Source of the DNA: a virus
IMG/VR virus record: IMGVR_UViG_3300005253_000580
Span: 1 to 60,790 of that record
DNA: 60,790 nt
Reading direction: 5' to 3' (one strand)
Below are positions 480 to 16,854 of this stretch, one piece after another (the stretch's first letter is position 1; every line of letters starts with the position of its first letter). The notes beneath the pieces are model-generated. The model was not told where the DNA came from, ran no database searches, and saw nothing but the letters and a program-made list of their open reading frames with translations. The translations under genes were made by a program, and so were the position numbers.

Positions 480-823
480 TAGCGCACCCGGTCAGGGTAG
501 CGCACGACACTGTTGTTGACCCTCTTCACCTTCACGTTGACCTTGGCGAGCGTTAGGTCCGCATCGTCGAACGCCAGGTCTGGACGGAGGGACGTATCGT
601 GCTTGTCGAGGTAGTAGTCAGCGGTCAGGCCCAGCTTGGCCGCCCATGTCTTAGCGTAGTCCTCACCACCGCCAGACCAGATGACCATCGTGTGACCCTG
701 AGCCTGAAACCAACGGTAGACAGCGATGACCTCGTAGTTGGGCACATCGATATCAAAGCCCGTCGCGGAGGCAGGGATGATGAGGGTGTCATCTACGTCA
801 AAGGCAACGATTAGGTTACCCAT
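479..823 (-). CDS. Small HAD-superfamily phosphatase-like protein
   Basis: N-terminal FDVDDTL matches HAD motif I (DxDxT). 114 aa, same operon. Confidence 0.6.
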   Translation of the reverse strand: MGNLIVAFDVDDTLIIPASATGFDIDVPNYEVIAVYRWFQAQGHTMVIWSGGGEDYAKTWAAKLGLTADYYLDKHDTSLRPDLAFDDADLTLAKVNVKVKRVNNSVVRYPDRVR

Positions 824-835
824 CAGTCACGATCA

Positions 836-1480
836 TCACGCCACCTTCAGCGTCGCATTGCATCTGCACGCCACGTGGGCGGGCGGTCCATCAGGAAATT
901 GATTCTTCCATACCGACTCTGGCTTCCCGTTGAGTGGCCTACAGATATCCGTATCAACCAAGTCATCACCCAGCGTGTGCCATATGCGCTCCATGACGAT
1001 ACCCGCACCACCAAGCTGGCGCTGAGCTATGTTGGTCGCCTCAGCGGACGCCCTCGTCACCTCGGTCACCGCGATAGCTTGTGCACGAGCAGGGCCAAAA
1101 GCTGGCCTTAGTGCCCCCTCCAATTCCCCCCGTGTCATCCCTGGCGTGGTGATGAAGGTCTGGATGGCCCGACTCACCACGTCTCGTGTCGTTGCGGTCA
1201 GGTCCTTCACCAGCCCGAATGTATGGTCTCGTGCCCAGGCAGCCGCCGCCTCATTGATGACTACAGCATCAAGATCAGCACTGACAGCCAGGGCTATGCC
1301 AGACGCTCGCTGCGCAACGTCAGTGAGTTGAGGTACGATGGCGGCGTTGAACATCCTCTCTACTTCATCGAAGCTGAGGATGTCGCCACGGATGATCTTG
1401 TCCGCTATGAGCGTGCCCTGTCGCCCCATCGCTCTAGTCAAGGCGAGACGCAGGGCGTCCTCGTCACGCTCCTGCGACAA
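836..1480 (-). CDS. Head morphogenesis / minor head protein (SPP1 gp7 / Mu F family)
   Basis: C-terminal ICRPLNGK...PPAHVACRCN signature typical of this family. Immediately downstream of portal. Confidence 0.8.
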   Translation of the reverse strand: MSQERDEDALRLALTRAMGRQGTLIADKIIRGDILSFDEVERMFNAAIVPQLTDVAQRASGIALAVSADLDAVVINEAAAAWARDHTFGLVKDLTATTRDVVSRAIQTFITTPGMTRGELEGALRPAFGPARAQAIAVTEVTRASAEATNIAQRQLGGAGIVMERIWHTLGDDLVDTDICRPLNGKPESVWKNQFPDGPPAHVACRCNATLKVA

Positions 1481-2810
1481 GAATGTCCTCCTCAGTCCTA
1501 TGCCCGTTGGTCTCTATCTCAGCGTAGCCAGGCATTGAGTAGGACCGGACTGGCTCCTTCACCAGCGCTGCAGGAATCTCAATGATGTTGGCCGATACTA
1601 GGAACACATCCCCATTGGGGGCAGCTTCAAACCCTAGAGCCTCACGGTATTCATTCCGCGTGAGTGCCCCGTCCTGGAAGCCATCCCTGATAGGAACCAA
1701 TGCCTCCTGCCTATTGATGGCGAGGGCACGGACTTCAGAGGTATCAAACTCAGTGATGATCCGCTCGTCAAACTCCGCTGCGACGTCAGTCTGGTACTGC
1801 TCCTGTAGGTTCCGCCAGAGATTCGACAGGGTAGTCTCGGCGAAGAACCGACGCATACCTGAAACGTTGTTATAGGTCGCAGCATCCAAGCCAGCCTGGA
1901 GTCCCGCAAGAATGGCAGGAACCCCCAAAGCCCCAGCGATCCGTGACTCTGAGACGGTACGGATAGAGGAGAGGTCAAGCTGGCGGGGGTTGAAACCGAT
2001 GGTTGTGATGGTCGTATCCCCATCCACAACGGCTGGAGTACCCAGCATAGCCCCGCCAAACTCCGCACGGAAATGTTCTTTAACCTGTCGTGCGGTCTCC
2101 TGGTTTAGCTTTGCCTTGATACTAAGCACCGTCGTAGGCGCAGCGTAGTTCGCCAGCAATGCCCCCACGAACTTGGTCGCCTCATTGTCTGATGCGATCT
2201 GCCGCGAGAGAACTTCCAGCGGCCCAAGACCCTCTACGATGCCACCCGACTCGCCGGCCGGATCGGGAAGCGTGAATGACACTACGTCCTTACGGGGGAT
2301 AGAGATGATCTGGGCATCCCCAGGCTGCTGGTAGCTGTAGCCCCAAAGTACCCGCTCGCCCGGCTCGTTGGAGTTGGAATAGATAGGCCCTACCCTATCA
2401 GGGCGCAGCGGCCACAGAGCGAGAAGTTGGCCTGTCATGTTGCGCTCTTTCCACCAAACGGATCGGCCCGTAATCCCTAGGTGGAGAGTCGTCAGTGCCC
2501 ACATCCGATACTCAGTCATGAGTTCGTTGGGGTGGCGCATGAGTTCTAGCAGCTTATGCCCCTCTGGCAACTCTTGGCGCTTATCCCCACCATCGAGAAA
2601 GGCTTTCATCGGTGGCTCAGCAACACCATGGGCCAAGAGTCGCAAACAAGCATAGACTACTTCATTCCGCGCATATGCCTGCCGAGCAAGCGGAAGGAAC
2701 TTGGTCTCAATGAGCCATGCCATATTGGCAAGCCATGAGGAGATGAGCGAGATGCCCTGGGTCGGAGTCGCCTTCAACCCATTCCAGAAGCTCTTGAATC
2801 GGTCAATCAT
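1464..2810 (-). CDS. Portal protein (HK97-type family)
   Basis: 448 aa with portal-like core (...FNPRQLDLSSIRTVSESRIAGALGVPAILAGL...). Followed by the gp7-like head protein. Confidence 0.85.
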   Translation of the reverse strand: MIDRFKSFWNGLKATPTQGISLISSWLANMAWLIETKFLPLARQAYARNEVVYACLRLLAHGVAEPPMKAFLDGGDKRQELPEGHKLLELMRHPNELMTEYRMWALTTLHLGITGRSVWWKERNMTGQLLALWPLRPDRVGPIYSNSNEPGERVLWGYSYQQPGDAQIISIPRKDVVSFTLPDPAGESGGIVEGLGPLEVLSRQIASDNEATKFVGALLANYAAPTTVLSIKAKLNQETARQVKEHFRAEFGGAMLGTPAVVDGDTTITTIGFNPRQLDLSSIRTVSESRIAGALGVPAILAGLQAGLDAATYNNVSGMRRFFAETTLSNLWRNLQEQYQTDVAAEFDERIITEFDTSEVRALAINRQEALVPIRDGFQDGALTRNEYREALGFEAAPNGDVFLVSANIIEIPAALVKEPVRSYSMPGYAEIETNGHRTEEDILVAGA

Positions 2811-3858
2811 CGATGTCCCCCCTTTGGATGACCTGCCCCCGCTCGATAATCCTGGAGGCCGTTCGTCCTAACACCACGGCGAGGTCGGTCATACCCGCCG
2901 GACCCCGCAAGGTTCTTACGTTCTCTGGCGTAAACACCTCGCCTACCGTCATGTCCTTTACACAGTGAACGCTGCGCCGATAGCGACGATAGAACGCCTC
3001 ATCAACCGCCTCCACTCTACCGTACATGATGACCTCTGTCTCACGTACCCGTTCCACCATCTCTTTGAACTCGTCGGGCTCTAGGGAGAAGGTAGCATCC
3101 GCCGCACCGTTGGCGCGGGAGCGCGTGAAGTGCTTCTCGATAATGCGGGCCCCGGCGGCTACGGCGAGGGCTGGCACCATAGGGCTCAGGGAATGGTCGC
3201 TGAGGCCCCTCACTACATGGTGTAGCCTATCCTGGTACTGACGATGCACCATATGGAGATTCATGTAGTGCAAGGGGGTGGGATAAGCAGTTACGCAATG
3301 CAAGACTGCTACATGGTCGAGACCAGTTAGGAGAGTAAAGGGGTGCAAACTTGCAAGGATTTCGTCCTCAGTTGCCATCCCTGTGGAGATAATGACGCGC
3401 TTGCCAGTGCGAGCTACGGCCCGAATCAGGTTCAAGTCCGTGATCTCAAAGGAGGCGATCTTGTAGGCCCAGACGTCAAGCATGTACTCCGTGAACATCA
3501 GTGCAGTGGGGTCGTAGATAGAAACAATAAACTCCAAGCCCAGAACCCTCGCCACCTCCTGTAGGGGCTGCGCCCAACTCCACGGCGTCCGTGCCTCAGA
3601 ATATAAGTCCCATAGCGTACGCCCTGCCCAGGGGCCAGAGTGGATCTGGAAGGGCTCTGTATCCATGGGTAGCGTCATCGTCTCGGGGCTGTAGAGCTGG
3701 ATCTTGACTGCATCAGCGCCAGCCTTGGCGGCAGCCTCCACCAGTGCCACGGCTTCGTCATAGCTGCCCCGGTGGTTGCAGGACAGCTCCGCAACAATAA
3801 TCGTTTTATCCGGCCACATTGAAGAGCCCCTTAATCCTAGCGAGTTCCTGGTCATCAT
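2803..3858 (-). CDS. neuB: Nonulosonic acid synthase, NeuB/PseI/LegI family, with C-terminal SAF domain. Likely true start is the ATG at 3819.
   Basis: IVAELSCNHRGSYDEAVALVEAAAKAGADAVKIQ matches the NeuB N-terminal signature. C-terminus VKDMTVGEVFTPENVRTLRG is SAF-like. Confidence 0.85.
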   Translation of the reverse strand: MMTRNSLGLRGSSMWPDKTIIVAELSCNHRGSYDEAVALVEAAAKAGADAVKIQLYSPETMTLPMDTEPFQIHSGPWAGRTLWDLYSEARTPWSWAQPLQEVARVLGLEFIVSIYDPTALMFTEYMLDVWAYKIASFEITDLNLIRAVARTGKRVIISTGMATEDEILASLHPFTLLTGLDHVAVLHCVTAYPTPLHYMNLHMVHRQYQDRLHHVVRGLSDHSLSPMVPALAVAAGARIIEKHFTRSRANGAADATFSLEPDEFKEMVERVRETEVIMYGRVEAVDEAFYRRYRRSVHCVKDMTVGEVFTPENVRTLRGPAGMTDLAVVLGRTASRIIERGQVIQRGDIDD

Positions 3859-4474
3859 CTAATGCCTCTGTACTCTTGGCCACATCCTCCACCTCTATGA
3901 TGGGCCGCGACTCATCAAATCCGTACTGCCATCGTGTCCTCACCAGGTTGAAAGTGTAGAACAAGTCCTCGCTCTCCACCTCGACCTCGATGCCCCGGCC
4001 CATCGCCATACCCAGCCAGAACTCCAGACAGGCACGGGCCGAGAGTGGCTCGCCCACTGGATGCAGTGTAACACCACAGAGCCTGATATGGGTCACCCCC
4101 TCCAGAATCGCATGGGCCACGAGCCAATCGAAGGTTCCACAGTGGTAGCGCCCATTGGGTAGCTCCTCCTCGATCCGCTTCTTCGGGAACTCCACACTGC
4201 CAGGAAATTCAGGGTAGTGGCGCTGCATGTATAGAGGGGTGCTGCCATCGTATTTCCAATGATTTAACCATGTGTCCTTGCTGACAGCATCCCAATAGGG
4301 CCAGTGCTCTTCCAGATACTCGGCTGAGTGAAGCTGATACCAGCGATCAGCATCCCAGGGGCCGAATGTGGACAAGGGATCATTGATACCCCATATTTCG
4401 TAGCCCGCTCTTCGGGCCTCGCGCCATGTCTTGAAGCCCTTACCAAACCCTACGATGGCAACCTTCCTAGTCAC
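3806..4474 (-). CDS. Rossmann-type transferase-like protein, paralog A. Architecture resembles CMP-nonulosonate transferases (CstII / DUF115-Maf-like); assignment tentative.
   Basis: KVAIVGFG ... EIWGIND ... RWYQLH ... GTFDWLVAHAILEGVTHIRLCGV aligns block by block with ORF 52065..53036. The block order resembles VIIAGNGPS / CNQ / ...GIDFY of sialyltransferase-like enzymes. Adjacent to the NeuB-family gene. Confidence 0.45.
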   Translation of the reverse strand: MTRKVAIVGFGKGFKTWREARRAGYEIWGINDPLSTFGPWDADRWYQLHSAEYLEEHWPYWDAVSKDTWLNHWKYDGSTPLYMQRHYPEFPGSVEFPKKRIEEELPNGRYHCGTFDWLVAHAILEGVTHIRLCGVTLHPVGEPLSARACLEFWLGMAMGRGIEVEVESEDLFYTFNLVRTRWQYGFDESRPIIEVEDVAKSTEALDDDQELARIKGLFNVAG

Positions 4475-4649: not shown

Positions 4650-5499
4650 AGATCCATAGCCTGGTCTGACCTAAGTCAGGGTAGTGAATCTCACTAGGGA
4701 TGGTGAATGCAAGGTGATTGACTGGTGCTTCGTAGTCCGGCTCCCGCCCCTCCTGCTGAGCAAGAAGAGCATTCACAACACGGGAGAGAAAGTAATATGT
4801 CCCCGTAAACCCGACTGTCACGTAATTGGGCAGTTTCTCCTCCAGCACGGCCGTGCATAGTTCTTCTGCTCGTAGGTACCGGGTATGGCTTGGCGGTACA
4901 ATCTCTGGTAGACCCACCCACTTCCGCATCCGGTTCAATCCATTGAGTCCGTCCTGCGACGACTCCACCATCACGTACTTCTTGCCCAGGGAGATGAGGT
5001 GCTGGATGGCCCGAAGCTGCGTCGGCCAGTCTGGCAGGTTGATGATGCAGCGCTCGGTGTAGACGGCATCGTACTCCGCACCCTTCCAGTCAAAGAGATC
5101 AGAGCAACCATATCGAACCGAACCGAGCGCACTAGACGAAAGCCGCTGGAGGTTACTCAGCATATCGGTGGAAAAGTCCACGGCGTCTATCACCATAGAG
5201 TACCGCTCAGCCAGATACCGCGCCGTCTCGCCATCACCGCAACCCATGTCCAGTACCCGCTTGGCACCCTGTAGCCTTCTGGCGATCTCACGCATCTCCA
5301 GTTCCTTCAGCACGCGATCCCGCGTCCCCGCATACTCGCCGAGGGAGGCGCGGTCATCCCAGAAGGCTTGCATATCTACAGCCATGTCAAGATTACCCAG
5401 AAGAACAATAATGCGCACACGACAGCTTCCCACGCTACAAAGACGCGCAGCCAATGCTCCCAGCCCAGATGGCCTCCTTGGCTTTGCCAGCTTGTCCAT
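4636..5499 (-). CDS. Class I SAM-dependent methyltransferase. Start uncertain: alternative ATGs at 5385 and 5373.
   Basis: VLDMGCGDGETARYLAE matches SAM-binding motif I. Confidence 0.7.
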   Translation of the reverse strand: MDKLAKPRRPSGLGALAARLCSVGSCRVRIIVLLGNLDMAVDMQAFWDDRASLGEYAGTRDRVLKELEMREIARRLQGAKRVLDMGCGDGETARYLAERYSMVIDAVDFSTDMLSNLQRLSSSALGSVRYGCSDLFDWKGAEYDAVYTERCIINLPDWPTQLRAIQHLISLGKKYVMVESSQDGLNGLNRMRKWVGLPEIVPPSHTRYLRAEELCTAVLEEKLPNYVTVGFTGTYYFLSRVVNALLAQQEGREPDYEAPVNHLAFTIPSEIHYPDLGQTRLWIFEND

Positions 5500-12349: not shown

Positions 12350-12562
12350 TCACCATGCCTGCTGGCCCTCCGCGGACGTTACTGAAGCATTACCCTCAGT
12401 GACTGCTACCCTCCACCCCTCTTCTTCGTCCTTAACAACCACCCAGCGCCAGCCCAACCCTGCGCTCGTGAGTGCATCTGCCACATCCCCGGCACAGAAG
12501 GAGCAGCGCCCGTCCACTACCGCTATAGCCGTTGCCACAGCCTCTGCTTCCCAATTCGTCAT
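12350..12562 (-). CDS. Hypothetical protein
   Basis: 70-aa ORF whose ATG is in an ATGA overlap with the TerL stop. Confidence 0.45.
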   Translation of the reverse strand: MTNWEAEAVATAIAVVDGRCSFCAGDVADALTSAGLGWRWVVVKDEEEGWRVAVTEGNASVTSAEGQQAW

Positions 12563-14067
12563 GGTGCCATTCTCTCCATCAACTCTATCTCGCTCCGTTC
12601 ACGCCGTCCCGTTGGCTCCAGCCACCAGTCGGGAATAGCCGAGCCCTGGAGTAGCAGGAGTGCCATAGTGGTGGTGTCCACCCAGTCGTCGTGGTCTGCG
12701 CTGGGGAACTCCAGGTGCTCAGCCTTCCACTCCTGAAGCCACGGGGCCTCCGGCGGGAGCCACACACGCATCGAGGCGAATATGTCCGTCACGGCATGGG
12801 CACGGGCCAGCTTGCCTCGCTCCTCTTTCCACCCTTGCACCTGGAGACCCTGGCTCTGCATCTGCTGCACCAGGCTGATCCCGCTAGCCTTATACTCCAC
12901 CCAGGTCCTATTGGGTTTGATTCGCTCTATGTGCCGTTCTACGAGATGCTTCAGATCGGGGAAGCCTACCTTCCAGCGCCCAGCGTCCAGCAGGTAGAGG
13001 TTGATTCCGCGACGCCCCCACGTGGCGGTAGCGGACCAATCGGCCTCCTGCCCCTCCTCGAAGGCTGTGTCCCAGACGGTGATGATGTCCTCCAGTATCT
13101 CCCGCGAGAATACCTCTGGAGGTAGAGGCACCATCTCCTCTGCCAGCGCTCGCCGCTCCTCCTCAGTGGGCACCCGCCAGGACTGCCACCACTCACCCCT
13201 GAATACATTACCCTCTTCCTCTCCAATATCACCCTGATAGACGCGGCGGAAGGTAAGGGGTGCCAGTGTCTGCTCACGCTGGAGGCGCTCAATAGACCAT
13301 CGCTCAGGCCATAGGGCAGTGCCGTCGTCCTGGATCGCCTTCTGGTGGATGAGAGTCCATTCCCTCTGGAGAAGATGGGCGGCGAGGTCACCGGAGTGCC
13401 AGCGCGTCATGATACAGACGGCTACGCCCTTGTCTGTGAGTCGGGTCAGCGCCACACGGTCCACCTTCTCTATGATCTTCTCGCGCTGATACCGAGTAGC
13501 CGTGTTCTCCAGGTCGTTCACGTCGTCGAGGATAAGCACATCAGCGCGGGGACCAGCAGGAAGCTCGGCGATTCCATAGGCTGAGAAGCTGGGGTGGGGG
13601 TCGGCTATATTGGGCCTCTTGAGATACCAAGCATGACCCGCCGTGCCACGACGGTCATCCAGCTCAACACCGGGAAAGGCATCGTGGAATTCAGCGCTAT
13701 CCCTGATAGTGTCCCTAACCGCCAGGCTCTTGGCAACCGCTAGGCCAGCAGCGCTGGACAGGTAGATAATATGAAGGCTAGGGTCTTGCCCCAGTAGCCA
13801 CGCAGGCCAGTGAACGCCAACCCACTGCGTCTTCGCGTAGCCAGGAGGGGCAATGATCAGCAATGGGTTATCAGGACTCACCTCAGCAAGCGCCTCTAGC
13901 CACACCTTATGGTGTATGGCGGGCGGGAGACCGTGAACAATGCGACCATAGTCGCCAAGGGTGGGCGGGGGAGGCGGCACTACGGTAGCCTTTGCCTCCT
14001 GAATACGCCGTACTACTTCAGTCAGTGCTGGGGTAAAATCCGCAGGACCATGAAGGAGCTGGTTCAC
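12559..14067 (-). CDS. terL: Terminase large subunit
   Basis: Walker-A-like IIAPPGYAKT, Walker-B-like VLILDDVND, and a C-terminal nuclease-like region. 4-nt overlap with TerS. Confidence 0.85.
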   Translation of the reverse strand: MNQLLHGPADFTPALTEVVRRIQEAKATVVPPPPPTLGDYGRIVHGLPPAIHHKVWLEALAEVSPDNPLLIIAPPGYAKTQWVGVHWPAWLLGQDPSLHIIYLSSAAGLAVAKSLAVRDTIRDSAEFHDAFPGVELDDRRGTAGHAWYLKRPNIADPHPSFSAYGIAELPAGPRADVLILDDVNDLENTATRYQREKIIEKVDRVALTRLTDKGVAVCIMTRWHSGDLAAHLLQREWTLIHQKAIQDDGTALWPERWSIERLQREQTLAPLTFRRVYQGDIGEEEGNVFRGEWWQSWRVPTEEERRALAEEMVPLPPEVFSREILEDIITVWDTAFEEGQEADWSATATWGRRGINLYLLDAGRWKVGFPDLKHLVERHIERIKPNRTWVEYKASGISLVQQMQSQGLQVQGWKEERGKLARAHAVTDIFASMRVWLPPEAPWLQEWKAEHLEFPSADHDDWVDTTTMALLLLQGSAIPDWWLEPTGRRERSEIELMERMAP

Positions 14068-14576
14068 GGTGCTGGTAGTTCCTTTTGCTCAATACCTAAG
14101 CTAAGCACTCCCGTTAGAAGTTCCTCCTCGGATATACCACTTTCCTCAGCGAAAAGCTTGAGCCGCTCCGTCAGGATATCCCAGCGATCACGACGACCGA
14201 AGAATGCTGGGAACCGCCTTTCGAGTAGCCATGCGTCAGCCGCCCACTCCCCTTTGCTATAGGTCTCATGGACAGTAGTTACACCTGTCCTCTCGTTGGT
14301 AGTAGTGGTCCGAGATAACACCTGTCCACCCTCAGCAGCTCGGCTAATACGGGCAACCCGTGTAAGAATAGCATCCGCCTCTGCCCTCGCGATATCTAGG
14401 ACGAAAGTGACAAAGCGTCCACTAGTTTGCTCTTTCCCCTGAAGCATCCAACGGTCCAATGTGCGGTAGCTGATACCCCCATGAACAGCAGCGACCACTA
14501 AGGGGTTGCCATCGCGCACAGCCTGCACGATATGCGCCGCAGCGGCTGGGGTGAACTTGCTGGGCCGACCTGCCAT
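14064..14576 (-). CDS. terS: Terminase small subunit (HTH DNA-binding)
   Basis: MAGRPSKFTP...GISYRTLDRWM is an N-terminal HTH typical of TerS. Lies directly upstream of TerL. Confidence 0.65.
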   Translation of the reverse strand: MAGRPSKFTPAAAAHIVQAVRDGNPLVVAAVHGGISYRTLDRWMLQGKEQTSGRFVTFVLDIARAEADAILTRVARISRAAEGGQVLSRTTTTNERTGVTTVHETYSKGEWAADAWLLERRFPAFFGRRDRWDILTERLKLFAEESGISEEELLTGVLSLGIEQKELPAP

Positions 14577-16507
14577 CAGAGCCCCATCCCTACCTGCGCC
14601 TCGCGCCCCACAGCCATATCGTAATATTCCTGCTCCTTCTCGATGCCGATAAAGCTGAACCCCTCAGCCAAGGCCGCGATGCCAGTAGTGCCGCTGCCCA
14701 TAAAGGGATCTAAAATGAGACCATTCGGAGGACACACGAGGCGGCATAGCCAGCGCATGAGATCCACAGGCTTCTGCGTTGGGTGCATGGACCGCCCGTT
14801 CTCCTGCTGACGCTCGGAGGGCGACACCTTAGCTGTATAGAAGAAGCGGGAGGCACCGCCTGAGTCAAGATAGCCAACTGTCATGCGGTCTTTACTGCTT
14901 GCGGGACCAGAATACACAGGGCTATTATGGTTCTCGCGCGTGAATCCTGGAGCGCTACCCCCTCGCTCCCCGCTCTGCTCGTCCAGCAAGCGCACGGCGC
15001 AATCAGGGGCGCACTCCCAAGCGGCTACGGTCTCGGTACCATCAGGGGCGTAATTCTGTCTCGGATTACGTTCATAATTCTTTCCTGACATTGAGGTATT
15101 TTCTGATTCTGCTAGATGGTGCGTGGTTAGTAAGGTGCTTGACTTCACCTGCTTGGTGCCCACCTCCACGCACTCAGGGCTGTGGGCCAGCACCAAATTA
15201 GCCGGCCATCGACCTATATCCCCAGCAACGCTCTCAGTTTGACGTTTTCCGCCTCCGCCTCGGCCAGCCGCCTCATTATTCGCAAATGCTCCTTGCCGTG
15301 TTCTGTCCACTCCGATAGGACTAGATTTTCTATCCGGTTGTCCTTCTTGTCCCCGTTGATGTGGTGCACCATCTCTGTACTCAGTAGTGGTCTCCCTAAT
15401 GCTCTCGCCATTACCAGGCGGTGTTCCCTCACCTGGCGAACGTTCGGGTCTAGCAGCAACGCCTTGTCGGTATCCGGCAGAATGTCTACCCGTAGGTCTT
15501 GATACCCCTCCCGCTTGGAGTCCCACCGACCACCCTTCCACCTGGGGTTGTTCGCTCCCATCATCACTTTCGACCGGCATGGTAGACTGCAAGTCATTGG
15601 TAATTTTGCGCGGTTGATTTGACTTATCCACCGCTTCATCGGCTTGCCGCAACCCGCGCAATTCATGTCGCGCACTCGCTCGCGCCTCCGCTTTTCGGCT
15701 GAGGCCCTGACCGCCGCTTCTGTTCTCTTCTTCATAGGTACTATTATGGGTCTTGATACGGTTGCTGTCAATGTTTATGCCGCCTACACCCCATCTCAGG
15801 ACGTTGGCGGCTACCGTGCGCTCACTGAGGGGCTTGCGGCAGAGGGCAATTATTTCCCACGATGGCTTCAGCGCTGTGCCCCAGCCATCCCACTGCTGAG
15901 CGGCTTCGGTGGCGGGAGTAGTTTGACTGAATTCACCAGCGTAGTCACCGTAGGCAACCTTGCCATCCTCAAGACGTGTCCGCCCCCAATTCTGTTGTCG
16001 CCCCACAACCTCGCGCTCAGCACCTGCCGCCTTGTCTATGGCCTTGCTCACCGAGGCGCTTTTCGGAAACCCACTGCCGTAGAGCCAGCAGAGGGTGTCC
16101 CGTATCTCAAACCCGGCGTCCTCCAGAGCCACCATGAGGCGATGGTGAGTTCTCGTTGAGCCGAAGGCCACGAGGTGCCCTCCAGGTTTGAGAACGCGCA
16201 AAGCTTGAGTAGCCCAGTTGTAGGACCATTCCTGAAACGCCAGGTTACCTTTGGTGGAACGGTCGTAAGCACCAGCATAATCACTCCGAGTGAATCCACT
16301 TGTTGTGCGACCTGACGCCAAGCGCGATGCACTGGGCCCCATAGCCTCACGCTTCCGAGCAGCCTCTTCAATCTCCGCGCCATCCCATGCTTTACCCATA
16401 AAGCGAATTCCATACGGAGGATCGCACACGATGGCATCCACGCTGTCGGGCTCCATGCTCGCCATGTGCTCAACGCAGTCGGCTAGGACGTGCTCGGGGT
16501 TAGGCAT
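14576..16507 (-). CDS. DNA methyltransferase (beta-class N6A/N4C, DPPY ... FxGxG order) carrying a roughly 175-aa insertion. The ORF is open to 16609; the likely start is the ATG at 16507.
   Basis: IVCDPPYG (motif IV) is N-terminal and LDPFMGSGTTGIAA (motif I) is C-terminal. A low-complexity stretch lies between GGINIDSNRI and GRWPANLVLAH. Confidence 0.8.
   Translation of the reverse strand: MPNPEHVLADCVEHMASMEPDSVDAIVCDPPYGIRFMGKAWDGAEIEEAARKREAMGPSASRLASGRTTSGFTRSDYAGAYDRSTKGNLAFQEWSYNWATQALRVLKPGGHLVAFGSTRTHHRLMVALEDAGFEIRDTLCWLYGSGFPKSASVSKAIDKAAGAEREVVGRQQNWGRTRLEDGKVAYGDYAGEFSQTTPATEAAQQWDGWGTALKPSWEIIALCRKPLSERTVAANVLRWGVGGINIDSNRIKTHNSTYEEENRSGGQGLSRKAEARASARHELRGLRQADEAVDKSNQPRKITNDLQSTMPVESDDGSEQPQVEGWSVGLQAGGVSRPTGRHSAGYRQGVAARPERSPGEGTPPGNGESIRETTTEYRDGAPHQRGQEGQPDRKSSPIGVDRTRQGAFANNEAAGRGGGGKRQTESVAGDIGRWPANLVLAHSPECVEVGTKQVKSSTLLTTHHLAESENTSMSGKNYERNPRQNYAPDGTETVAAWECAPDCAVRLLDEQSGERGGSAPGFTRENHNSPVYSGPASSKDRMTVGYLDSGGASRFFYTAKVSPSERQQENGRSMHPTQKPVDLMRWLCRLVCPPNGLILDPFMGSGTTGIAALAEGFSFIGIEKEQEYYDMAVGREAQVGMGL
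15214..15771 (-). CDS. HNH homing endonuclease (type B) nested out of frame inside the methyltransferase ORF
   Basis: REHRLVMARALGRPLLSTEMVHHINGDKKDNRIENLVLSEWTEHGKEH plus an N-terminal CAGCG...CSLPC zinc motif. Same strand as the MTase, and 16609-15771=838 is not a multiple of 3. Confidence 0.75.
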   Translation of the reverse strand: MTATVSRPIIVPMKKRTEAAVRASAEKRRRERVRDMNCAGCGKPMKRWISQINRAKLPMTCSLPCRSKVMMGANNPRWKGGRWDSKREGYQDLRVDILPDTDKALLLDPNVRQVREHRLVMARALGRPLLSTEMVHHINGDKKDNRIENLVLSEWTEHGKEHLRIMRRLAEAEAENVKLRALLGI

Positions 16508-16715
16508 CAGCCCTCTTCCGCTCCCTGTACGCTTTGTCCCTACAGGACACAGAGCAGTACCTGCGCGTAGCGAGGCCGAGTATGACCGCGCCGCACACAA
16601 CGCACTCACCCTCTACCCGTGGCCTCATGGCAGCGAGAGCGCGGGCAGCGTCAGTAGCGTTAGTCATAAGCCAGGCCCAGGGCCATTCTCCCAGGGACAC
16701 CGATGGTTGGCCCAC
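16500..16715 (-). CDS. Small zinc-ribbon protein
   Basis: CVVCG...YCSVSCRDKAYRERKR. Confidence 0.5.
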   Translation of the reverse strand: MGQPSVSLGEWPWAWLMTNATDAARALAAMRPRVEGECVVCGAVILGLATRRYCSVSCRDKAYRERKRADA

Positions 16716-16854
16716 TACTTAGCTGTTGCCTTGTGTTTGTCAACTCATTCACAAAGCAGCCGTATGTGGTGGTGAGGATTCCAGCGTTCTGGTTACCCTG
16801 CTGACGGGCCATCGATTCCTCACTTGGGCGTCTCTCTTCCGCCACCTGGCTCAT
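16660..16854 (-). CDS. Hypothetical first gene of the leftward arm (possibly leaderless)
   Basis: The ATG lies 6 nt downstream of a TAGAGT -10 element, with no SD. Overlaps the next ORF by 56 nt, so it is uncertain. Confidence 0.35.
   Translation of the reverse strand: MSQVAEERRPSEESMARQQGNQNAGILTTTYGCFVNELTNTRQQLSSGPTIGVPGRMALGLAYD

Follow-up and report, generated by a model that had tools for sequence, protein, structure and literature searches.

On the usual view, homing endonucleases (HENs) can persist within conserved genes only if an intron or an intein removes them from the gene product. The "ShiLan domain" was described in a mycobacteriophage methylase by Gosselin et al. 2023 (PMC9957025). 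Arsenault, Gosselin & Gogarten 2025 (PMC11855218) later reported that the ShiLan domain hides an out-of-frame HNH gene while the host frame stays open and no intron or intein can be detected, and they proposed a tolerated loop combined with leaderless or internal translation of the endonuclease. Here, we describe an HNH gene that lies out of frame inside the DNA methyltransferase (MTase) gene of an uncultured marine-sediment phage, IMG/VR virus record IMGVR_UViG_3300005253_000580 (positions 1 to 60,790; this whole stretch of 60,790 nucleotides, 57% GC, is referred to as the window). We think it probable that the MTase of this phage is read straight through the HNH gene, which would be an overprinted homing endonuclease accommodated as a tolerated loop and spliced out at neither the RNA nor the protein level.

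The window MTase belongs to the same PF01555 family as the ShiLan methylase, with the GTALKP, NIDxCRI, and GRWP(A/T)N motifs, and it is 46-47% identical to PopTart gp63 and other insertion-free members (46-50% across PopTart, Xeno, Arib1, and others). Its closest relative, the database protein P0002, aligns to the ShiLan and Mantra MTase segments. The window HNH protein is 36.9-39.8% identical over residues 24-150 to those of ShiLan, Mantra, Starcevich, Bipolar, Filuzino, and others (E = 2e-14 to 7e-16), which are among its best phage matches. In both systems the HNH gene is on the strand of its host, out of frame, and fills its insert, the host frame is open, there is no intron or intein signature and no clear ribosome-binding site, and the distribution is disjunct. 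On the other hand, neither the site nor the frame is shared: the ShiLan element uses the +2 frame and separates GTALKPSYEP from AFEPIVVARKP, whereas the window element uses the +1 frame and separates NIDxxRI from GRWPAN, ~30 codons downstream of the ShiLan site. Unlike ShiLan, the window element lacks a duplicated 11-residue target repeat, and its host is not a mycobacteriophage. Judged from these alignments, the window element is a different element or allele of the ShiLan kind, with a new site, frame, and host range.

An HNH gene within an open methyltransferase frame

The host MTase has the beta-class layout, with DPPY near the N-terminus and FMGSGTT near the C-terminus. The D, P, P, and Y residues and F.GSG are invariant in the MTase alignment, and a variable target-recognition region lies between DPPY and the FxGxG S-adenosylmethionine (AdoMet) motif, the arrangement of beta-class N6-adenine/N4-cytosine MTases. 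The C-terminal domain matches CcrM (6pbd), M.RsrI, and M.MboIIA. Counted from a GTG the ORF (open reading frame) has 677 codons. The ATG at 16507 (MPNPEHV) is the probable start and gives a product of 643 residues; it is preceded by the Shine-Dalgarno (SD)-like sequence GGAAGAGG (duplex energy -7.8 kcal/mol), and a 643-residue protein from a marine-sediment metagenome (P0001) is 100% identical to the window MTase.

The nested HNH ORF begins 838 nucleotides into the MTase ORF (838 mod 3 = 1), and both genes are encoded on the minus strand. The HNH product has 185 residues from a TTG at 15771 or 173 residues from an ATG at 15735, and it carries a CxxC...Cx3C zinc ribbon and an HH..N..N..H core. 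In the HNH alignment His105, His124, His125, Asn133, Asn137, and His146 are invariant and Cys29 and Cys49 are near-invariant. The beta-beta-alpha-Me core of the HNH_3 (His-Me finger) enzymes, with its catalytic His, Asn, and Asn/His, and their zinc-binding Cys pair are all present, and the PF13392 match is above its cutoff. The HNH frame modeled with AlphaFold2 and homologue alignments reaches a mean confidence (pLDDT, predicted local distance difference test) of 93.7. A sequence search of the PDB with the HNH profile gave no match. The window HNH protein is not contained in a collection of 5.8 billion protein sequences, in which the best match is 58% identical. An earlier note on this DNA, made from the letters alone, had described a complete HNH ORF with a zinc motif and an HH-N-N core, lying on the strand of a beta-class MTase at an offset of 838 nucleotides and immediately upstream of TerS and TerL; the ORF list, the Pfam matches, the MTase motifs, and the adjoining terminase genes bear this description out.

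Comparison with insertion-free alleles defines the insert. The linker between NIDxxRI and GRWPAN is 12-47 residues long in 51 of 53 homologues, all of them insertion-free and with no long conserved segment at this place. By comparison, it has 180 residues in the window and 171 and 198 in the two other occupied alleles, P0004 and P0109. The HNH ORF opens inside the conserved NID motif and its start lies 9-21 codons past NIDSNRI, while its TAG stop (15214-15216) overlaps the D-I-G codons that directly precede GRWPAN. As a result, no non-coding sequence remains in the insert beside the HNH ORF. The closest allele, P0002 (contigs L003/L004), is empty. Its flanks are 74% identical to those of the window (78% amino acid identity in the N-terminal part and 66% in the C-terminal part), and the DNA homology to L003, 77% over 16508-15789, restarts exactly at 15214. 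The insertion between GGINIDSNRI and GRWPANLVLAH at 15200-15780 given in the earlier note is in essential agreement with this non-homologous segment. The low-complexity composition it reported for the stretch, rich in G, R, E, Q, and S, also holds; its length is 180 residues, compared to ~175 in the note.

When the 53 alleles are ranked by flank identity to the window, the occupied ones come 38th and 53rd, and 37 empty alleles are closer. The distribution among MTase alleles is thus patchy (disjunct), which is consistent with homing. In two other MTase homologues, P0014 and P0003, the region GRWPANV..H.PEC..VG...VK / CP.C.V..LD.QSG is duplicated internally in tandem, which is probably further evidence of structural plasticity around GRWPAN.

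The MTase frame contains no stop across the HNH gene, compared to 18-21 stops in the third frame. In 47 other genes of the window, the same shifted frame has 0.047 stops per codon and a longest open run of 132 codons. Given the HNH protein and the window codon usage, the probability of an open MTase frame is 1.9e-5 by exact dynamic programming, and it decreases to 1.5e-6 with the codon usage of the MTase flanks. The most conservative test, in which the HNH gene's own synonymous codons are shuffled, gives 0.0014. HNH codons ending in T show the same avoidance, with 0/57 before codons starting with AA, AG, or GA vs 14/115 elsewhere (Fisher p = 0.005). The earlier note had remarked on the stop-free host frame over ~560 nucleotides and had proposed an estimate of its chance, which these values now supply. 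A TpA or other dinucleotide bias was considered as a cause of the stop avoidance and rejected, since the 0.047 stops per codon measured in the 47 window genes already include any such bias.

The two frames are not constrained in the same way. Among seven elements, the mean amino acid identity is 56% in the HNH frame vs 33% in the MTase frame, and by HNH-frame codon position the substitutions follow the order third > first > second. These patterns indicate that the HNH sequence is under purifying selection and that the MTase-frame reading is probably constrained only to stay open. The second position of the host codons corresponds to the first position of the HNH codons, which is rarely T, and this explains why the 180-residue loop in the MTase frame (residues 252-431 in the 643-residue numbering) is rich in G, R, E, Q, S, and P. 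In the AlphaFold2 model of the MTase frame, residues 246-440 have pLDDT values of 29-41 and no secondary structure, and are located between confidently folded MTase parts. A conserved function was also considered for a similarity between the loops of different carriers (PHQRGQ.GQP) and was rejected, because it is the VHHINGDK.DNR catalytic motif of the HNH read one base off.

The coordinates of the locus are collected in Table 1. The MTase stop overlaps the TerS ATG (TGATG at 14578-14574), which suggests that the two genes are translationally coupled. Given this overlap, a premature stop in the MTase frame would uncouple terminase translation too in this phage.

Table 1. Features of the MTase/HNH locus and the adjoining terminase genes, in window coordinates.
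Feature	Position	Strand	Evidence or remark
HNH ORF (HNH_3, I-HmuI-like), +1 frame relative to MTase	15214..15771	minus	PF13392 E = 4e-10; phrog_20891 HNH endonuclease E = 1e-17
Candidate HNH starts	15733..15771	minus	TTG 15771-15769; ATG 15735-15733
Inserted segment without homology to empty allele	15215..15788	minus	574 nucleotides vs ~125-nucleotide linker in L003
MTase host ORF	14576..16609	minus	PF01555 N6_N4_Mtase E = 1e-34; open end to end
MTase N-terminal part (DPPY ... GTALKP ... GxGxINID-SNRI)	15755..16507	minus	homologous to insertion-free alleles; pLDDT mostly 85-97
MTase C-terminal part (GRWPANLVLAH ... GGASRFFY ... HPTQKP ... FMGSGTT AdoMet motif)	14576..15214	minus	same frame as N-terminal part
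TerS, small terminase subunit	14064..14576	minus	phrog_4102 E = 4e-20
TerL, large terminase subunit	12559..14067	minus	Terminase_6C E = 7e-9; phrog_38 E = 7e-85

Carriers in other genomes and at other sites

The first carriers, P0004 (contig L001) and P0109 (contig L002), were found as full-length proteins and are therefore open-frame by construction. Because of this ascertainment bias, the survey was redone from the HNH side at the DNA level, with searches of viral, metagenome, and genome collections that ignored host gene calls (the scan of genome contigs gave 5 loci). Out of 176 HNH matches, 16 lie within a longer same-strand ORF, and 15 of these 16 are in this MTase family; in the remaining case, L085, the host ORF barely exceeds the HNH ORF. 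Six more distinct elements occupy the site of the window element (L001, L002, L007, L008 (= L168), L009, and L167), and a partial one is found in L107. L168 comes from a Pseudonocardia metagenome-assembled genome (MAG) and L167 from a 1.74-Mb contig of a Solirubrobacterales MAG. The gene calls of L001 and L002 list the MTase only and not the nested HNH.

Every element at the window's site is offset by +1 and lies in an uninterrupted MTase frame. Shuffling of the own codons at each of these loci gives P = 0.0009-0.06, with a Fisher combined p of 4e-9. When elements at three sites are taken together, the frame is open in 12 of 12 (combined p = 1e-13). The L107 fragment, at 48% GC, also has an open frame (P = 0.003). 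The third-position differences between elements amount to 0.42-0.65 per site, so synonymous sites are near saturation, which implies that the purging of stops has been maintained separately in each lineage.

These data bear on the possibility that the MTase is dead, having been disrupted by the endonuclease, and that its frame is open through base composition only. At 57% GC, the window does hold long spurious ORFs, including one of 171 residues antisense to the MTase. However, the calculated probabilities of an open frame (2e-5 to 1.4e-3) and the many stops in the other shifted frame do not fit this explanation, nor does the open frame in every independent carrier, including the one at 48% GC. 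No carrier has lost a catalytic or AdoMet motif, and the window flanks closely resemble an intact empty allele. A dead MTase kept open by GC bias, one of three options in the earlier note, is therefore rejected as extremely unlikely.

The position of the HNH start is informative as well. In L001, L002, L007, and L167, the HNH start ATG is formed from the host's conserved (D/N)-G codons, and all 4 of these relatives use the rarer GAT/AAT codon that makes this ATG (joint expectation 0.006), suggesting that the HNH start is selected. The TTG of the window stands at the position of the relatives' ATG and has a weak SD-like sequence, TAGGCGG, 8 nucleotides upstream (-5.7 kcal/mol). The ATG 12 codons downstream has no SD sequence (-0.7 kcal/mol), and the median duplex energy of the window genes is -6.9 kcal/mol. 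The HNH protein may be made by low-level internal initiation.

Terminase-associated HNH proteins are widespread in phages, and the nested gene lies immediately upstream of TerS and TerL; accordingly, the HNH protein could be a packaging accessory nuclease and not a homing enzyme. This would not explain why L003/L004, the closest relative, has the MTase-TerS-TerL-portal order but no HNH, or why the element in L001, L002, and L167 stays at the MTase site and does not travel with the terminase genes. Moreover, the protein is an I-HmuI-like HNH_3 enzyme that carries a zinc ribbon, and among phage proteins it is closest to the hidden HNHs of mycobacteriophage methylases. We regard a packaging role as highly unlikely.

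The out-of-frame layout might also be an artefact of two compensating assembly errors, or the result of programmed frameshifting, with an MTase-HNH fusion as the real product. Apart from the +1 relation conserved at the window's site, as a recoding signal would require, nothing directly supports it. Eight independent assemblies from different projects have the same +1 offset, which argues against assembly errors. A fusion is contradicted by stops that, in the window, L001, and L007, close the HNH frame 0-3 codons before the HNH start. Ribosomes would also have to shift back again, since the HNH frame ends before GRWPAN is reached, and the junctions share no conserved slippery motif. Of all the alternatives weighed, this one is the least credible, and its probability is close to negligible.

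Additional insertions have been identified in this MTase family. An intein-like element is located between WxYG and SGFPKS in L007 (1334-2086, host ORF 769-3534) and in L010 (844-1905, host ORF 393-2315). The first ~80 and last ~28 residues of these elements match the published ShiLan intein by BLAST, while the middle is an out-of-frame (+1) HNH_3 gene that replaces the in-frame endonuclease domain. Neither gene interrupts the host/intein frame (shuffle P = 0.0004 and < 0.0002, respectively), which in L010 stays open over 353 codons at 46% GC. Pfam detects no Hint domain in the intein-like inserts of L007, L010, and L088, so the intein assignment is drawn from the BLAST matches to the ends of the ShiLan intein. 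A survey of actinophage inteins has described out-of-frame EndoVII-like HENs in inteins and does not report HNH ones (bioRxiv 10.1101/2025.01.02.630785).

In L167, the MTase ORF (1783-4473, plus strand), which also holds a +1 HNH of the window type, contains a second HNH gene of 201 residues in antisense orientation (3251-3856, minus strand) between W.CA and CPVAELD. The host frame has 0 stops there vs 5 and 9 in the other plus-strand frames (shuffle P = 0.0012). A related +1 HNH follows GRWPxNVVLxHVG... and precedes CPVAELDRQ in L088 (2141-2878) and L093 (405-1145), again with an open host frame (shuffle P = 0.0008 and 0.027, respectively). L088 also has a LAGLIDADG-type intein like that of ShiLan. 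Finally, L001 contains a tRNA gene (4784-4854, Rfam 55.5 bits) ~350 nucleotides upstream of its occupied MTase gene; no tRNA was found in the window.

Splicing and the proposed mechanism

HNH_3 enzymes such as I-HmuI are typically intron-encoded. Since I-HmuI is the best structural match of the window HNH, and since two highly conserved motifs flank the insertion, a common position for introns, a compact self-splicing group I or group II intron has to be considered, with its ribozyme wholly inside the HNH coding sequence and spliced from the mRNA. Rfam covariance models detected no intron when the whole window was scanned at the gathering threshold, and no intron family (Intron_gpI, group II, or other) when 14400-16800 was scanned at E <= 10 or 7 related loci at E <= 1; the other matches in these scans were chance miRNA- or lncRNA-like ones and the tRNA in L001. 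The HNH ORF fills the insert and leaves no non-coding core. An intron would predict the reverse of an open host frame, yet host-frame stops have been purged from all 12 elements at the three sites, and the MTase parts on either side of the insert are always in one frame. A compact intron is, in our view, very unlikely.

An intein is not compatible with the locus either, because the HNH is out of frame. Pfam finds no Hint, intein, or any other domain in the host-frame insert, which is predicted to be disordered. In excluding an intein and in seeing almost no room for an intron core, the earlier note was right, and the covariance-model scan it proposed agrees in all 8 loci. Its compact-intron option finds no support in these results. 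The option now favored is that of a read-through MTase with a tolerated loop and an overprinted HEN, based on the purged stops, the constraint in the HNH frame, and the disordered insert.

According to the mechanism that we propose, a selfish cassette that is essentially an HNH_3-type gene alone would have settled in the naturally variable NIDxxRI-GRWPAN linker of a phage MTase. Ribosomes would read the MTase straight through the cassette, such that a hydrophilic, disordered loop of ~180 residues replaces a linker of ~35 residues and the MTase may remain active. Host-frame stops that arise by synonymous drift of the HNH gene would be removed by selection for a working MTase. In the window phage, selection to carry translation on into the coupled terminase genes may contribute; it cannot be the general cause, because other carriers have no such coupling. 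The HNH protein would be made separately and at a low level from an internal start, in the window either the TTG at 15771 or the ATG 12 codons downstream. In co-infections the enzyme could then nick or cut insertion-free alleles, and repair would copy the cassette into them.

Several observations weigh against translation of the MTase through an overprinted HEN, or limit how far it can be generalized. Neither of the HNH start candidates has a good SD sequence. The best fold match in the PDB, I-HmuI (1u3e, probability 0.85), is weak (E = 0.28), and as a result the structure adds little beyond Pfam. The cassette replaces the ~28-residue linker of the empty allele and is not a clean point insertion, so that it marks no exact homing site. 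Most of the other carriers have 63-71% GC, at which an open -1 frame is just moderately unlikely per locus (up to 0.06-0.13), and the combined p-values overstate independence since the lineages share ancestry. Read-through translation, the activity of an MTase with the loop, translation of the HNH, and cleavage are all deduced indirectly, as are the endonuclease activity and homing of ShiLan (PMC11855218, section 4.4) and the mechanism put forward in the published work.

Two further insertions also stand against a universal read-through. In L007 (232-781), a third HNH_3 gene (380-781) at the FMGKDFD site is associated with a broken host frame (232-486, then 769-3534). The MTase gene of L007 is thus split, inactive, or dependent on something else, although the host frame remains open across the two HNHs nested further downstream. 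In L010 (2285-2995), on a 289-kb contig of 46% GC, a ShiLan-type insert follows GTSLKPAFEPVCVGYKRV, and a host stop occurs 8 codons in (2313-2315); a second complete MTase gene is found at ~3367 in this contig. The broken frame in L007 and the stop in L010 mean that read-through is not universal.

Comparison with known systems

Compared to the published ShiLan case, the window and its relatives bring another site of insertion and another frame relation within this enzyme family, and they extend the carriers to environmental, non-mycobacterial phages and prophages. They also add quantitative support that the open host frame is selected, which is indirect evidence that the read-through MTase is a functional product, and they illustrate that standard gene calling hides nested HNH genes. 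With neither an intron nor an intein, the window element, like ShiLan, would depend on a surface linker that tolerates insertion and on stops being purged continuously. The locus is a clean natural case of two frames coded on the same strand, where constraint bears on the sequence of one and only on the openness of the other.

On a wider view, the window element may be one branch of a larger selected radiation, in which HNH genes occupy at least five positions of one MTase family (+1, +2, antisense, and within an intein) and stops have been purged from the host frame in nearly every case; to us the arguments for and against this view are evenly balanced. If it is true, dual coding plus a disordered loop that the protein tolerates would give HENs a third general route into conserved genes, next to introns and inteins, and it would occur well beyond actinobacteriophages and be systematically missed by gene callers.

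A second hidden-HNH case, Pacc40 gp60, is also an insertion in a methylase (PMC11855218). As in the window, an out-of-frame DNA-binding/HNH-like ORF is located in an open methylase ORF, at a position that differs from that of ShiLan. By the description in that paper, however, Pacc40 gp60 belongs to a helicase-fused methylase family and its HNH to another, less certain family (PMC11855218). Inteins with a HEN domain, including those with out-of-frame EndoVII-like or antisense HENs (bioRxiv 10.1101/2025.01.02.630785), resemble the window element in that the host frame must stay open through the endonuclease DNA. They differ in that the window insert has no Hint or splicing blocks, and the loop would accordingly stay in the protein. 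I-HmuI of the Bacillus phage SPO1 shares with the window HNH the fold match in the PDB, an insertion next to highly conserved host codons, and presumed homing. In contrast to I-HmuI, the window element has no ribozyme, and its host frame is kept open and is not interrupted. In the Aeromonas phage Aeh1, the free-standing HEN mobE splits the host gene nrdA. Similar to the window element, mobE is a HEN without an intron or intein in a conserved phage gene that stays functional, but the Aeh1 nrdA gene is divided into two ORFs, the products of which come together again, whereas the window MTase ORF is continuous and dual-coding.

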